Assembly (NCBI RefSeq): GCF_055900595.2
Contig: NZ_CM148325.1
Strand: one strand, 5' to 3'
DNA: 64,000 bases
Of the stretch, positions 7,050-13,513 are shown one piece after another. Within the stretch, counting starts at the first letter, position 1; each line of letters opens with the position of its first letter. Below the pieces are notes generated by a model, which did not search any database, had not been told where the DNA came from, and was given only the letters and a program-made list of their open reading frames with translations. A program made the position numbers and the translations under genes.

Positions 7050-7757
7050 ATGGATTTGAATAAATTCGATGAGCCATTCAGCCCTGAAGATATCGAATGG
7101 CGAATACAGCAAAGCGGTAAAACACGCGATGGCAAAGTGTGGGCTATGGTGCTGGCTTATGTCACGAACCGGGCAATCATGAAACGCCTGGACGATGTTT
7201 GCGGCAAAGCAGGATGGCGCAATGAATACCGCGATATTCCCAACAACGGCGGAGTTGAATGCGGCATATCAATCAAGATTGATTCCGAATGGGTAACCAA
7301 ATGGGATGCCGCTGAAAACACGCAGGTAGAAGCCGTCAAAGGTGGTCGTTCCGGTGCAATGAAGCGCGCTGCCGTTCAGTGGGGAATCGGTCGGTATCTG
7401 TATAACCTTGAGGAAGGTTTTGCACAAACATCTCTCGATAAAAAGCAGGGATGGCACAGGGCAAAACTCAAGGATGGAACAGGATTTTACTGGCTCCCTC
7501 CATCGCTGCCGGGATGGGCAATCCCAGCATCAGATAACAAACCATCACCAGAAAATACCAACCAGAAATCTCCATCGGTTGACTGCGAACAAATCCTGAA
7601 AGACTTCAGCGATTATGCGTCAACAGAAACTGACAAGAAAAAACTCATCGAGCGTTATCAGCGTGACTGGCAATTAATGGCTGGCAACGAGGAGGCGCAG
7701 GCTAAATGCGTTCAGGTAATGAACATCAGAGTTAACGAACTAAAACAGGCGGCATAA
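7050..7757 (+). CDS. Single-strand annealing protein (Rad52/Sak-like)
   Basis: Motif KGGRSGAMKRAAVQWGIGRYLY typical of Rad52-type annealases; sits where lambda bet would be. Confidence 0.7.
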   Translation: MDLNKFDEPFSPEDIEWRIQQSGKTRDGKVWAMVLAYVTNRAIMKRLDDVCGKAGWRNEYRDIPNNGGVECGISIKIDSEWVTKWDAAENTQVEAVKGGRSGAMKRAAVQWGIGRYLYNLEEGFAQTSLDKKQGWHRAKLKDGTGFYWLPPSLPGWAIPASDNKPSPENTNQKSPSVDCEQILKDFSDYASTETDKKKLIERYQRDWQLMAGNEEAQAKCVQVMNIRVNELKQAA

Positions 7758-8225
7758 ATGTCTCACTTGGACGGAATTATTAAAAGATTCGAGTCCAGCT
7801 ACAAAGTTAATGAAACAACAGGTTGCTGGGAGTCTACCTATTCAAAAAACAAAGGAGGATACACAAAATTTGTAGCCTTTGGCGTAACAATGCTTTCTCA
7901 TCGGGTTGCTTTTGAGCTTTATCACTCCCCCATTCCATCTGGGAAGATGGTTTGCCACAAATGCGATAACCCATGCTGCGTTAATCCTGAACATCTCTTT
8001 TTAGGTAGCGCGCAAGAAAACATGGACGACAAGATAGCAAAAGGAAGGCATCGTGGAGCCAAGAAAGGTCATGCTCATCATGGTGCAAAATTAACAGAGT
8101 GGCAGGTTATAGAAATTAGGAAAAGACTCTCTGAAAAAGAGAGTCAGTACAAGATAGCAAAAGACATGGGTGTATCTCAATCAATTATAAGCAACATAAA
8201 AACTGGCAAGAGGTGGAGCAAATGA
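7758..8225 (+). CDS. HNH endonuclease with C-terminal HTH
   Basis: HRVAFELYH...[23 protein letters not shown] motif. Confidence 0.8.
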
Positions 8226-8728
8226 GTTCTCGCGGGATAAATAAGGTGATTATTCTTGGTCGGGTAGGACAAGACCCGGAAGTTCGATACTCACCATCAG
8301 GAACAGCGTTCGCTAACCTGACAATAGCCACGTCAGAACAATGGCGAGATAAAAATACTGGCGAGCAAAAGGAATTGACTGAATGGCATCGTGTTGCTGT
8401 ATCCGGGAAACTGGCTGAGGTCGTGGGGCAGTATGTGAAAAAAGGTGATCAGATTTATTTCGAGGGAATGCTGAGAACCAGAAAGTGGAAAGACCAGTCA
8501 GGGCAAGACCGTTACACAACCGAGGTTCATGTCGGAATTAATGGTGTGATGCAAATGCTTGGCGGCATTGGCGACAGCAAACAACAAGCATCCAGCAGGC
8601 AATCACAGAAGCCACAGCAGCAATCATCACCAGCACAACACAACGAACCTCCGATGGATTTTGACGACGATATACCCTTTGCACCAGTAACTCTCCCCTT
8701 CCCTCGTCACGCTATTCACGCAATTTAA
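8222..8728 (+). CDS. ssb: Single-stranded DNA-binding protein (phage SSB) with C-terminal extension
   Basis: OB-fold N-terminus, Gln/Pro-rich linker, DDDIPF motif followed by 15 extra residues. Confidence 0.9.
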
Positions 8729-8741
8729 TCAGGAGAAAATC

Positions 8742-9035
8742 ATGCCAGCGCCTCAGTATGGTGCGGATGACCCGCGCCGCTGTTCCGGCAATTCCGTATC
8801 GGAGGTGCTGGATAAATTCAGAAAAAACTACGACCTGATAATGTCGCTACCGCAGGAAACGAAAGAGGAAAAGGAATTTCGCCATTGTATATGGCTTGCA
8901 GAGAAAGAAGAACGCGAGCGAATTTACCAGACATCAATCCGACCATTCCGCAAAGCCACATATACCCACTTCCCTGAAATTGACCCGCGCCTGCGTAATT
9001 ACCGCTCACGCTATGGCGCTATCAGTAATGACTGA
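8742..9035 (+). CDS. Hypothetical protein
   Basis: 97-aa ORF with CAGGAG SD. Confidence 0.5.
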
Positions 9036-9045
9036 GGAATTTACC

Positions 9046-9210
9046 ATGAGAGGACTTGCATACAATCCCGGCATTCTTCCGGCAGAAATGATTATTCGCC
9101 AACGCGTAAAGCCAATGCCATCGAGAGAGGAATTGCTTAAGAGAAATTCTTTTCCATCAGTGTATCAAAACAAATATCTGAATGCAATGTGGCGGAGTGG
9201 GAAGAAATGA
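9046..9210 (+). CDS. Hypothetical small protein
   Basis: Internal ATG with GAGGAA SD; start uncertain (alternative ATG at 9028). Confidence 0.35.
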
Positions 9211-9626
9211 AACAAATGTCACTAATTGAGATGGATGGATTTCTGAAAGGTAAATGCATCCCAAGTGATTTAAAGGTTAACGAAACAAACGCTGATTATC
9301 TGGTGCGTAAATTTGCTGAAGCGGAGGCCAAGTGCGCGGCGCTTGCGGCGGAGAATGAGCTGGCTCGTAAGGCAGTTCAGGCATTCTGCGATGTTGTTGG
9401 CGACAACACCGAGGTTATCGCTGAGGTGGTTGGGCGAGATGGCGTTCTGGTTATTTTGGAGGCCATGAAGGCAACAGGAAATATGCCAGCCACCGATGCT
9501 TTTCTGGCTGAAGTACGGGCGCAGGGTGTTGAATTGTTGCGCGAGCATCCTGCTATCCAGATTTGCTCTTTAACGCACGTATGCGACGAGTTCGCCGCCC
9601 AGCTTCGTCAGGGGGAAGCGGTATGA
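9207..9626 (+). CDS. Hypothetical protein
   Basis: ATGA overlap with upstream ORF; start uncertain. Confidence 0.5.
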
Positions 9627-9940
9627 GCATAGTTGATGATTCACATCTTACAGACGAAGTGGTTAACGCCGCTTTCGAAGGTACCAATTTCGGGCGCACT
9701 GATTTCCGCACCATTCTGGCAGAAACAGTTATGAAGCGTGCTGCTGGCTATCACTCTGGCTACACGGCAACGACTATCTGTATTCGCCTGGGATTGCTTG
9801 GCAAACACGATCGCCCGACAAAACTCGGCCTGACCTTCGCTTTCCATCACTACTACAGGCCATGCGTTCGCGAAGCGCTGATTTCGCATAACAGCCTTGA
9901 AGTATGGGCAAAACTTGGAGCACAGGAGTCCGCCAAATGA
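9623..9940 (+). CDS. Hypothetical protein
   Basis: ATGA overlap with upstream ORF. Confidence 0.5.
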   Translation: MSIVDDSHLTDEVVNAAFEGTNFGRTDFRTILAETVMKRAAGYHSGYTATTICIRLGLLGKHDRPTKLGLTFAFHHYYRPCVREALISHNSLEVWAKLGAQESAK

Positions 9941-10224
9941 GCAACATCAACAAACAGGCGCTGATTGCAAAAATCAAAAAGCAGGCCGAAAGCTTCGACA
10001 CAGTGGTGTTGAGAGAGGATGAAGCTAACGCGCTGCTGGATGAGCTGGAAGCAGCAGAGAAGCGGATTGCTGAACTGGAAGCGCGGGAAATACTGCTCCC
10101 GGAACGTAGCAGCATGCTTCATCGAACAGATTTTCACGATGATTACCAAACGGTAATGGCATACAAAGTTTCTGAAGTCATCGATGCAATCCGCGCCGCT
10201 GGCATTCGTATCAAAGGAGAGTGA
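9937..10224 (+). CDS. Hypothetical coiled-coil protein
   Basis: ATGA overlap; heptad-like LDELEAAEKRIAELEARE. Confidence 0.5.
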   Translation: MSNINKQALIAKIKKQAESFDTVVLREDEANALLDELEAAEKRIAELEAREILLPERSSMLHRTDFHDDYQTVMAYKVSEVIDAIRAAGIRIKGE

Positions 10225-10225
10225 T

Positions 10226-10447
10226 ATGGCTAACTCATTACTTGAAACCTGCAACAACTGGCAGATTCAGAGGGCGGAGATTTTATCTCGCAATCCAGAT
10301 ATGGCAATGACAATTGATAATCTGGACACGCTAATTGAACGGACCGTGCGTTCTGCAATTGATATAGCACATCGAGTGGATTGGGATTTCAGAGAAGCGG
10401 AGCGACTTGCTAAAGAGCAGGCGAAAGCAGCGGGTAAAGGAGAGTGA
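10226..10447 (+). CDS. Hypothetical protein
   Basis: ATG after conserved AAAGGAGAGTGAT junction. Confidence 0.45.
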   Translation: MANSLLETCNNWQIQRAEILSRNPDMAMTIDNLDTLIERTVRSAIDIAHRVDWDFREAERLAKEQAKAAGKGE

Positions 10448-10448
10448 T

Positions 10449-10646
10449 ATGGATAAAAACACCACTGCTTACTGGAGTCTTTCACTTGATACCGAATGTC
10501 CCAAATGCGGCCACAATTTCGATCTGCTTTGCGATGCTGATTTCTGGGAATTTTCTGGAGCAAAACAGGCATGTGAAGAAATAAAAGGTTACGAAACATG
10601 CTGCCCAGAATGTAACCATGAATTTAAAACAGATTTTGTGTATTGA
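10449..10646 (+). CDS. Hypothetical zinc-ribbon protein
   Basis: CPKCG...CCPECN; same AAAGGAGAGTGAT junction upstream. Confidence 0.5.
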   Translation: MDKNTTAYWSLSLDTECPKCGHNFDLLCDADFWEFSGAKQACEEIKGYETCCPECNHEFKTDFVY

Positions 10647-10656
10647 GGCATAACGA

Positions 10657-11466
10657 ATGACCACTTTTACTAAAGAACAATTAATAGAGATAATTAAGCG
10701 CAATATAACGGTTATGGATCGTTATCCTGATTTAGTAACTGCACAAATGGATCTGGAAGTATACAAAATTGCGCTGGCATCACTGGAAGCAGAACCAGTT
10801 GCTTATATTTTCAAACATCCGGCCGGGAAATTATTCTGGGCTTTAACGGATGAAAGCAATAAAGAGCAACCGGACGTTATTCCTGTTTATGCTGACTCAC
10901 CTGCGCCGGTTGTGCCGGATGAAATAGACGTAAACGATGTACCAAGGGCGGTGACATATTTCAAGACACACAGAGATTGTTACGCAGATGGCTGGAACGC
11001 CTGCCGCGCCGCCATGCTTCAGTCCGGAAACTTTCGGGAAAACAAGAATTCGTCAACCAATAATTTTCGGGAAATCGCGGAAACGTCAACCAACTATCCG
11101 GTAATTCCTAGTGAGGTGTTGTCCGCAATCCTGAAGGTTGCCAAGATTCGTGCCGATTTCGATGATTTTGACGGTGACAGGCGAGGTATCGGTGATTGTC
11201 TGGATGAGGCTGAGCAAGAGCTTATCGTTACCATTAACAAATATGCCAGTCAGTTGGCAGCAGAACCGATAGCGACTAATGACGTTCGAGAGCAAACAGC
11301 CGTTCCGCCAGTTCCTGTAATACAGGCTGATGTCGCGCAGGCAATTGAAAAACTCAAACGGAAATTAGTGGAATGCAATCGCTATAACTACTGCGCAGAT
11401 GCAGTTAAGGGCGTTGAGTATGCCTGCCACGCTGCCACGCTGCCACGCTGCCATGCTTCAGGGTAG
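10657..11466 (+). CDS. Hypothetical protein (269 aa)
   Basis: Long ORF; 3-prime end carries the CTGCCACG tandem repeat. Confidence 0.55.
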   Translation: MTTFTKEQLIEIIKRNITVMDRYPDLVTAQMDLEVYKIALASLEAEPVAYIFKHPAGKLFWALTDESNKEQPDVIPVYADSPAPVVPDEIDVNDVPRAVTYFKTHRDCYADGWNACRAAMLQSGNFRENKNSSTNNFREIAETSTNYPVIPSEVLSAILKVAKIRADFDDFDGDRRGIGDCLDEAEQELIVTINKYASQLAAEPIATNDVREQTAVPPVPVIQADVAQAIEKLKRKLVECNRYNYCADAVKGVEYACHAATLPRCHASG

Positions 11467-11857
11467 CCAACCTGTAAGCCAAACTTACAAGTTTCCAGTT
11501 AATACACCTTGCCAGGATGCGCCAGCCCATATCTGGCTGCAAACAGCTGGAGTATGGCCAGAAGATGGCGAGTTAAGCGAATTAACGTGGTGCAGCCACA
11601 ATCAGCACCATGATGACACGCTATATGTTCGAGCTGACTTGGTAAATGGCAATTCTCCGGTAACTCCGGATGGTTGGATAAGCTGTAGTGATCGAATGCC
11701 AAACGAAGAAGATGTTTTGGTTTATTGCTCAGACACTAAAGAGCAGATGGTAGGGTTTCACAAAGGTAAAGGGTTATTTCAATTCTTTTACATGAATGGT
11801 GTTGAGGGGGTATGTGAGCCGTCACACTGGATGCCGCTACCAGAGCCTCCACTTTGA
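11399..11857 (+). CDS. Phage protein with DUF551-like C-terminus; start uncertain (ATG at 11399, 11420 or 11453)
   Basis: C-terminal W.PLPEPP-type motif; no convincing SD at any candidate start. Confidence 0.5.
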   Translation: MQLRALSMPATLPRCHAAMLQGSQPVSQTYKFPVNTPCQDAPAHIWLQTAGVWPEDGELSELTWCSHNQHHDDTLYVRADLVNGNSPVTPDGWISCSDRMPNEEDVLVYCSDTKEQMVGFHKGKGLFQFFYMNGVEGVCEPSHWMPLPEPPL

Positions 11858-11953
11858 AAGCGAAGCTTATACATATCTTTTACATCAGCAATCTATTGTT
11901 AATCTCCAATCAATGTTACGTTGTCATCTCACTCATGCTTTGGAGGTAGTGAT

Positions 11954-12133
11954 ATGTCTTGTCCAAAATGCGGTTCTGGAAATATTGCAAAAGAAAAAAC
12001 AATGCGTGGATGGTCTGGTGATTATGTGTGCTGCGATTGCGGATACAACGACTCTAAAGACGCATTTGGAGAGCGTGGTAAAAACGAGTTTGTCAAAATT
12101 AATAAAGATCGCGAAGGCAACGGAAAAAGCTAA
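11954..12133 (+). CDS. Hypothetical zinc-ribbon protein
   Basis: CPKCG...CCDCG; GGAGG SD. Confidence 0.5.
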   Translation: MSCPKCGSGNIAKEKTMRGWSGDYVCCDCGYNDSKDAFGERGKNEFVKINKDREGNGKS

Positions 12134-12198
12134 TTTATTTATTCATATATGAAAACAATGTAACCAATATTCGAATTGAAGAACTGAAAGAACACCAA

Positions 12199-12220
12199 GC
12201 CGCCTGATGGCGGTTTTTTC
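12199..12220 (+). terminator. Rho-independent terminator upstream of xis
   Basis: GCCGCC-TGAT-GGCGG hairpin followed by TTTTTT. Confidence 0.45.
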
Positions 12221-12246
12221 TTGCGTGTAATTGCGGAGACTTTGCG

Positions 12247-12465
12247 ATGTACTTGACACTTCAGGAGTGGAACGCACGCCAGCGACGCCCAAGAAGCCTT
12301 GAAACAGTTCGTCGATGGGTACGCGAGTGCAGGATATTCCCTCCTCCGGTTAAGGATGGAAGAGAGTATCTGTTCCACGAATCAGCGGTAAAGGTTGACT
12401 TAAATCGACCAGTAACAGGTAGCCTTTTGAAGAGGATCAGAAATGGGAAGAAGGCGAAGTCATGA
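12247..12465 (+). CDS. xis: Excisionase
   Basis: 72 aa, MYLTLQEWNARQRRPRSLETVRRW..., lambda Xis. Confidence 0.92.
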   Translation: MYLTLQEWNARQRRPRSLETVRRWVRECRIFPPPVKDGREYLFHESAVKVDLNRPVTGSLLKRIRNGKKAKS

Positions 12466-13513
12466 GCGCCGGGATTTACCCCCTAACCTTTATATAAGAA
12501 ACAATGGATATTACTGCTACAGGGACCCAAGGACGGGTAAAGAGTTTGGATTAGGCAGAGACAGGCGAATCGCAATCACTGAAGCCATACAGGCCAACAT
12601 TGAGTTATTTTCAGGACACAAACACAAGCCTCTGACAGCGAGAATCAACAGTGATAATTCCGTTACGTTACATTCATGGCTTGATCGCTACGAAAAAATC
12701 CTGGCCAGCAGAGGAATCAAGCAGAAGACACTCATAAATTACATGAGCAAAATTAAAGCAATAAGGAGGGGTCTGCCTGATGCTCCACTTGAAGACATCA
12801 CCACAAAAGAAATTGCGGCAATGCTCAATGGATACATAGACGAGGGCAAGGCGGCGTCAGCCAAGTTAATCAGATCAACACTGAGCGATGGATTCCGAGA
12901 GGCAATAGCTGAAGGCCATATAACAACAAACCCTGTCGCTGCCACTCGCGCAGCAAAATCAGAGGTAAGGAGATCAAGACTTACGGCTGACGAATACCTG
13001 AAAATTTATCAAGCAGCAGAATCATCACCATGTTGGCTCAGACTTGCAATGGAACTGGCTGTTGTTACCGGGCAACGAGTTGGTGATTTATGCGAAATGA
13101 AGTGGTCTGATATCGTAGATGGATATCTTTATGTCGAGCAAAGCAAAACAGGCGTAAAAATTGCCATCCCAACAGCATTGCATGTTGATGCTCTCGGAAT
13201 ATCAATGAAGGAAACACTTGATAAATGCAAAGAGATTCTTGGCGGAGAAACCATAATTGCATCTACTCGTCGCGAACCGCTTTCATCCGGCACAGTATCA
13301 AGGTATTTTATGCGCGCACGAAAAGCATCAGGTCTTTCCTTCGAAGGGGATCCGCCTACCTTTCACGAGTTGCGCAGTTTGTCTGCAAGACTCTATGAGA
13401 AGCAGATAAGCGATAAGTTTGCTCAACATCTTCTCGGGCATAAGTCGGACACCATGGCATCACAGTATCGTGATGACAGAGGCAGGGAGTGGGACAAAAT
13501 TGAAATCAAATAA
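12443..13513 (+). CDS. int: Tyrosine integrase, lambda Int
   Basis: 356 aa; N-terminal arm-binding region and catalytic domain as in lambda Int; overlaps xis. Confidence 0.95.
   Translation: MGRRRSHERRDLPPNLYIRNNGYYCYRDPRTGKEFGLGRDRRIAITEAIQANIELFSGHKHKPLTARINSDNSVTLHSWLDRYEKILASRGIKQKTLINYMSKIKAIRRGLPDAPLEDITTKEIAAMLNGYIDEGKAASAKLIRSTLSDGFREAIAEGHITTNPVAATRAAKSEVRRSRLTADEYLKIYQAAESSPCWLRLAMELAVVTGQRVGDLCEMKWSDIVDGYLYVEQSKTGVKIAIPTALHVDALGISMKETLDKCKEILGGETIIASTRREPLSSGTVSRYFMRARKASGLSFEGDPPTFHELRSLSARLYEKQISDKFAQHLLGHKSDTMASQYRDDRGREWDKIEIK

Follow-up and report, generated by a model that had tools for sequence, protein, structure and literature searches.

We found that two consecutive gene boundaries of a lambdoid prophage share an exact 17-mer, AAAGGAGAGTGATATGG, and we consider it likely that this sequence is a conserved gene-boundary linker of the lambdoid accessory region: a portable junction at which gene cassettes are exchanged by short-homology recombination. 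The window (the whole 64-kb stretch of DNA that was analyzed) contained the 17-mer on the + strand at 10213–10229 and at 10436–10452. No third match was present in the window with as many as two mismatches tolerated, the chance expectation for the sequence in the window was 0.01, and two matches appeared in 0 of 100 shuffles. A sequence-only reading had pointed to an identical 17-nt junction at two consecutive ORF boundaries, each copy spanning the end of an ORF ending in ...KGE, the ribosome-binding site (SD) and the next start codon. Its coordinates proved exact, and the reading frame bore out its description of each copy.

Copy 1 reads AAA GGA GAG TGA, the K-G-E-stop of an Ea22-like ORF, with the embedded AAGGAG, followed by a spacer T and the ATG-G of ORF2. 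It thus covers the ...IKGE end of the ORF at 9937–10224 (TGA at 10222–10224) and the ATG of ORF2 at 10226. Copy 2 likewise comprises the K-G-E-stop of ORF2 (...GKGE; TGA at 10445–10447), a ribosome-binding site, and the ATG-G of ORF3, whose start codon is at 10449. Sequence reading placed AAGGAG 6 nt 5' of each ATG, and each TGA stops one base short of the ATG. With the ribosome-binding site inside the upstream coding end and the stop adjacent to the start, the junctions have the layout of translationally coupled ones; the linker is suited to such coupling, which would then operate at both copies. When the repeat was lengthened beyond 17 nt, 20 of 21 bases were alike (...GGCTAA vs ...GGATAA). 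To the left of copy 1 lies a shoulder, GCTGGCATTCGTATC (AGIRI; 10198–10212, + strand), that is common to Ea22-like subfamilies, and shoulder plus linker make an identity block of ~33 nt at Ea22-type junctions.

The two copies lie in the early-left operon of a lambdoid prophage adjoining ybhC. Gene order was established from PHROG, Pfam and RefSeq annotation. It begins with antiterminator N, a Rad52/Rad22-family single-strand annealing recombinase (7050–7757, + strand; Pfam PF04098, E = 5e-26; RefSeq), an HNH endonuclease (7758–8225; Pfam HNH_3; RefSeq), SSB (8213–8728; Pfam; RefSeq) and the anti-RecBCD protein Abc2 (8742–9035; PHROG abc2; RefSeq). Small genes of unknown function follow, and then the Ea22-like gene, ORF2, ORF3, DUF551-type genes, the excisionase and a tyrosine integrase (12443–13513) that is lambda-Int-like by sequence reading. 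Because of this order, both linker copies fall among the accessory genes that separate the recombination genes from xis/int. Other junctions within the same operon use ATGA overlaps. As a separate observation, the HNH gene at 7758–8225, which also matches a helix-turn-helix weakly, separates the Rad52-family recombinase from ssb, and no gene is annotated as an HNH endonuclease at the corresponding place in HK620; the gene may be a homing-type insertion.

The Ea22-like ORF (+ strand) encodes 95 aa ending in ...AGIRIKGE and matches both a PHROG family and Pfam Ead_Ea22. Its widely shared portion is the C-terminal block from about 10033, and among the matches listed the block at ~10036–10228 was 93–97% identical to other E. 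coli genomes. RefSeq annotates 10033–10224 alone, as an ead/Ea22-like pseudogene fragment 'missing N-terminus'. The 95-aa ORF starts at an ATG in an ATGA overlap with the gene upstream, and its first residues, MSNINKQAL, are close to the MSNIDKRAL with which full Ea22-like proteins of other phages begin. It could be an intact, shortened variant that lacks the middle part. ORF2 (10226–10447, + strand; 73 aa, phrog_10585, function unknown) is a single-gene cassette between the linker copies, with a period of 223 bp. ORF3 (10449–10646, + strand; 65 aa, phrog_4173) is the downstream cassette and carries CxxC...CxxC motifs like those of a zinc ribbon. RefSeq annotation gives ORF2 and ORF3 at identical coordinates.

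The sequence-only reading had taken linkers of this kind for the joints by which lambdoid phages swap gene cassettes. The check that it had proposed gave a positive result: the exact 17-mer was found in at least 120 viral contigs, with two or three copies in some, and in every phage occurrence it spanned a gene boundary with K-G-E-stop and ATG in the same register. A comparison of the ORFs that come after it showed different genes in different genomes, paired many-to-many with those before it. We clustered the 120 nt on each side of the linker and counted upstream-by-downstream combinations, which numbered 76 in 131 occurrences among the matches listed, these occurrences being database contigs and not phylogenetically independent events. 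Fourteen occurrences had relatives on neither flank, and most of these were clearly low-GC matches due to chance; with them set aside, 58 combinations in 113 occurrences remained among the matches listed. Seven upstream clusters were each found with both of the commonest downstream clusters, D1 and D2, and five upstream families paired with at least 12 downstream families. The flanking modules therefore reassort across the linker among related phages, as the modules beside a boundary sequence do.

The linker is also an island of identity between non-homologous flanking genes. For 4521 of the 5162 pairs whose downstream clusters differed, identity was gone within 0–1 nt of the right edge, and pairwise identity beyond this edge was ~0.3, the background level. 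At the left edge, identity was lost at the linker itself between unrelated upstream families; Ea22-like subfamilies share a further ~15-nt shoulder, GCTGGCATTCGCATC, and leftward identity between different upstream clusters often ran to 11–20 nt. Because the TGA of the linker, read in the K-G-E frame, is the stop codon of every upstream gene, unrelated proteins share a K-G-E tail: Ea22-like variants, a 64-aa cassette, truncated DUF550/551-like proteins and ORF2 all carry it. U1-type upstream genes had seemed to end in another frame, at a TAA overlapping the linker start, but ORF tracing showed that these too end in the K-G-E-TGA frame. A Pfam match was obtained for only one swapped cassette (D9, an HNH endonuclease), the rest being of unknown function. 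The linker with a lambdoid-type upstream flank was also seen in a Segatella copri MAG contig (L248) and in a 427-bp contig labeled 'Xanthomonas pisi' (L299), which are probably enterobacterial phage contamination of those assemblies.

Breakpoints of homology in other genomes were located by megablast, using a 1.5-kb query (9500–11000) against phage records and against 5,426 complete E. coli genomes. Phage homology repeatedly stopped at window position 10228–10229, as at hkaG/hkaF of HK620 and in 22 Stx-phage matches among those listed; it began at 10436 in Salmonella phages SE10 and SI23. The HK620 hkaG/hkaF junction contains a copy of the linker with one mismatch, AAAGGAGAGTGAGATGG. The same genome region of HK620 was reportedly dealt with by Clark, Inwood, Cloutier and Dhillon in 2001. 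Within a spread sample of 60 E. coli rows, 20 of the 28 single-piece matches to the Ea22-like block ended at exactly 10228, and 27 of the 28 ended within 10221–10232. The gene after the breakpoint varied (a hypothetical protein, DUF550, DUF551, or a dATP/dGTP pyrophosphohydrolase domain protein). Among the E. coli matches, one block started at 10213 (H63) and one ended at 10451 (H66), and homology also started at 10436 (H70; SCU-101). The full 1.5-kb arrangement was present in 1 of the 5426 E. coli genomes, the source itself (EC332, 100% identity), and pieces of it were found in 1,211. Mosaic breakpoints thus coincide with the edges of the linker, as expected of a boundary sequence.

The matches extended to plasmids, which accounted for 174 of the 1,389 matching E. 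coli places. In addition, plasmid-prophage P7 (AF503408.1, upf88.3-89.5) holds both an Ea22-like block and a DUF551-type block. By sequence comparison, this suggests that lambdoid prophages and P1/P7-like plasmids exchange cassettes.

In an exact-match search, 100% identity of the linker is built in. We therefore gathered ORF3 and ORF2 homologs on protein similarity, disregarding the linker, and then read their junctions. At the 5' junction, each of the 54 close ORF3 homologs had the linker itself or a form minimally changed from it: 22 were exact, 26 had one mismatch, and 6 had a 4-nt GTGA insertion. At least four unrelated upstream gene families preceded the linker of ORF3 homologs, and a different junction was seen only in six divergent homologs (83–86% amino-acid identity). 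For ORF2, the linker was present with 0–1 mismatch at 23 of 40 homologs, the divergent ones having other junctions, and different upstream genes preceded ORF2 in other phages. Three ORF2 homologs (L197–L199) had a premature TAG at codon 12 and kept the upstream linker; they look like decaying cassettes.

In locus L155, the same Ea22-like end leads through a single linker directly to ORF3 (alignment A1), such that the window differs from it by a clean 223-bp indel consisting of ORF2 and one linker copy. In locus L185, a different upstream gene is joined to ORF2 at the linker. At the 3' end of ORF2 in L185, identity continues to the end of AAAGGAGA, beyond which another gene follows; the breakpoint is therefore inside the linker. 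Together, recurrence, reassortment, breakpoints and this indel support the interpretation of the junction as a cassette-swap joint, as judged from sequence comparisons. The one-mismatch variants of the linker, used as markers for the crossover point, segregated oddly across loci L001–L225: c9 and a7, in the 5' half, traveled with the downstream gene, and g13, the HK620 type in the 3' half, traveled with the upstream gene. This segregation is partly contradictory; it would need exchange points in the outer 4–8 nt, recurrent mutation or heteroduplex repair, and no single crossover point fits it.

Divergent ORF2 homologs of Klebsiella phages carry a different 17-mer, GGAGGCTGAGTGATGGC. One such locus (L214) has GGAGGCTGAGTGATGGC at both ends of the ORF2 homolog, 212 bp apart, and a block of homology with Aeromonas phage pIS4-A begins exactly at the second copy. 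A scan with GGAGGCTGAGTGATGGC yielded 82 flank combinations in 118 analysable occurrences among the matches listed; in these matches, 18 upstream clusters had at least two downstream partners, and one downstream cluster had 17 upstream partners. By sequence reading, the flanks of GGAGGCTGAGTGATGGC resemble genes of the E. coli pool near the junction, with Ea22-like tails (...AGIKV) and with D1-, D9- and ORF2-like starts. The existence of two dialects means that the junction sequence is not fixed by function, and on these sequence comparisons the junction is uniform within one phage gene pool and different between pools. A bolder reading, which we regard as improbable, is that each enterobacterial pool keeps its own dialect by concerted evolution at orthologous junctions (AAAGGAGAGTGATATGG in E. 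coli/Salmonella lambdoid phages, GGAGGCTGAGTGATGGC in Klebsiella), and that the dialects might act as compatibility tags limiting short-homology cassette exchange. If so, they would offer a natural, countable system for the dispute over whether phage mosaicism arises by linker-homologous or illegitimate recombination.

In the mechanism that we favor, the same linker stands between many unrelated small genes of the E. coli/Salmonella lambdoid phage pool. An exchange between co-resident phages or prophages that resolved in or at the linker would leave both flanking genes intact, in frame and expressed. Because the window contains two copies of the linker, ORF2 would be a cassette open to insertion, deletion and replacement. 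The exchange would be driven by homology at the linker and performed by a phage recombinase. The enzymes would probably be recombinases that act on short homology, the prophage's own Rad52-family annealing protein for one, with SSB and the anti-RecBCD protein as further candidates, and longer homology in a shared neighboring gene could be the source of the second crossover. Minimal efficient pairing segments have been given as 31–34 bp for RecA and 23–27 bp for Redβ (PMC3945230). At 17 exact nucleotides (20/21 when lengthened), the linker is shorter than both, and a length of ~33 nt is reached only at Ea22-type junctions with the shoulder.

This shortfall is one of the points in favor of a different account, which we regard as improbable: that the linker is conserved only as a translation signal, that illegitimate recombination takes place at random sites followed by selection for gene-border joints (the Hendrix model), and that the 17-mer simply travels with gene ends. 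The pattern of variant markers, which misfits one simple crossover point, also speaks for it, as does the behavior of the sequence in unrelated bacteria. We scanned 298 Gb with one genome per species, as a measure of background rate rather than of host range, and found 86 exact matches to AAAGGAGAGTGATATGG, almost all in unrelated phyla; only 4 of the 86 were of the lambdoid type. By our own arithmetic, ~35 matches were expected for a random 17-mer. With a 17-mer so rare, two copies 223 bp apart are not a chance occurrence. Among 80 unrelated genome matches, the linker's ATG opened at least 50 codons in 63, so the sequence also serves well as an all-purpose ribosome-binding site and start. Selection for expression probably helps to conserve it.

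Yet the translational function needs no such sequence, given the ATGA overlaps in the same operon and the different Klebsiella 17-mer at orthologous junctions. Because function does not require the sequence, 17/17 identity between unrelated gene pairs points to shared descent spread by exchange, and not to convergence. Random joints followed by selection would not give unrelated proteins one K-G-E tail, nor would they yield base-exact breakpoints in hundreds of genomes. At the level of sequence comparison, the dialects, the K-G-E tail and the exact breakpoints all weaken the case for illegitimate recombination, and we retain exchange at a conserved linker as our preferred explanation.

The repeat might instead have arisen locally, by tandem duplication or replication slippage that copied one junction, in which case the ...KGE ORFs would be paralogs. 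Two direct copies on the same strand, 223 bp apart, with both upstream ORFs ending in KGE, are what such an event could leave behind. However, BLASTP showed no relationship between the two upstream proteins (E = 0.30), and the identity does not go past the ends of the repeat; together these results exclude local gene duplication. Similarity beyond the junction, as in a tandem duplication, was absent, the repeat being limited to 21 nt, and each junction is found separately in many genomes with other partners; we therefore consider this origin extremely improbable. We also consider it very improbable that the linker is the target of a site-specific enzyme, for instance an HNH endonuclease encoded in the region or an integron-like recombinase, that cuts or recombines gene junctions and so mobilizes cassettes. 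It is true that the HNH gene at 7758–8225 is placed between the recombinase and ssb, and that D9, one of the cassettes found behind the linker in other phages, encodes an HNH protein. But the linker has no dyad symmetry, no stable structure and no attC-like match, Rfam returned nothing at E ≤ 1 in 9000–12500, and the fold of the mRNA around the copies was no better than that of shuffled sequence (z = 0.79 and 0.26), so that the mRNA is predicted to be unstructured at the linker. The prophage, which lies beside ybhC, has no integrase other than a lambda-type Int, and breakpoints fall inside the linker and at both its edges, with no single fixed position. Neither a promoter-like nor a terminator-like site was detected at either copy. 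Exchange of cassettes by homology at the linker thus remains the reading that we prefer to a local duplication or a dedicated enzyme.

Boundary sequences of lambdoid phages have been proposed before, in the modular theory of Susskind and Botstein (1978) and for HK620 by Clark et al. (2001), as these are cited in PMC2327257 and PMC3029335. The linker resembles such sequences in being short, in lying at gene borders with unrelated flanks and mosaic breakpoints, and in its position among accessory genes, with the recombination functions on one side and int on the other. The phenomenon is therefore already known in kind, and the linker is no new kind of element. The exact 17-mer was not discussed in the literature that we searched, where a search with the sequence gave only an unrelated lentiviral-vector paper; Clark et al. 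(2001) lay outside that search. The lineage dialects (E. coli/Salmonella vs Klebsiella) and the imposed K-G-E tail were likewise not found in the literature searched, and PMC9836094 and PMC2629481 gave no useful further detail on boundary sequences.

The linker may also be set beside three other known systems. Phage recombinases of the Rad52-like type have been shown to drive the formation of mosaics (De Paepe et al. 2014, PMC3945230), and relaxed homologous or homeologous recombination by these enzymes has been described as a source of mosaicism (Martinsohn et al. 2008, PMC2327257; PMC3945230). As in those studies, the prophage has a Rad52-family recombinase, SSB and anti-RecBCD, and the exchange partners are temperate phages and prophages that are related and share a host group. 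Those studies, in contrast, concerned diverged homologies of hundreds of bp with identical segments of 23–34 bp, whereas the linker block is 17–21 bp, or ~33 with the shoulder. The linker shares with translationally coupled operon junctions an AAGGAG in the last upstream codons and a stop next to the start; ordinary coupled junctions, however, are specific to one gene pair, and the linker is identical across many unrelated pairs. Finally, as with integron cassettes, small single genes lie between repeated boundary elements, and their order and content reassort. Unlike an integron, the region has no inverted-repeat attC, IntI or attI, and the linker consists of coding sequence plus a ribosome-binding site; with no significant fold, no Rfam match and only a lambda-type integrase, it is not a member of that class.

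Boundary sequences have been reported as unidentifiable at most mosaic boundaries (PMC3029335). The linker is a clear and well-populated example, in which one 17-mer and its Klebsiella dialect join dozens of gene combinations, and it offers a practical way to test whether phage recombinases build mosaics through short-homology recombination. The dialects and the number of natural recombinants could together serve as a test system for the old question of mosaicism. For annotation, the linker explains the K-G-E C-terminus common to unrelated small prophage proteins, as well as the near strain-by-strain variation of the accessory genes between the recombination genes and int.

Several further features were observed downstream of the two linker copies. 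ORF3 has another conserved boundary at its 3' end (window 10644–10676), with the sequence TGAGGCATAAC(A/G)AATGACCACT(A/T)TTAC(C/T)A(A/G)AGA. It was common to 50 of 60 ORF3 homolog loci, and a slightly diverged form was present in 6 more; the genes 3' of this boundary diverge only after ~20 nt of coding sequence (MTTITKE...). The hkaF/hkaE junction of HK620 also has ATGACCACTATTACCAAAGAAC. Farther downstream, CTGCCGCGCCGCCATGCTTCAG (window 11001–11022) is repeated 439 bp away at 91% identity, in the region 11424–11461, and three tandem CTGCCACG octamers precede this downstream repeat. The ORFs at 10657–11466 and 11399–11857 overlap by 68 nt in different frames, and RefSeq annotates 11005–11265 as a partial DUF551 pseudogene. 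In other phages, the same motif, NACRAAMLxG, runs straight into the K-G-E linker, and the genes are truncated as a result.
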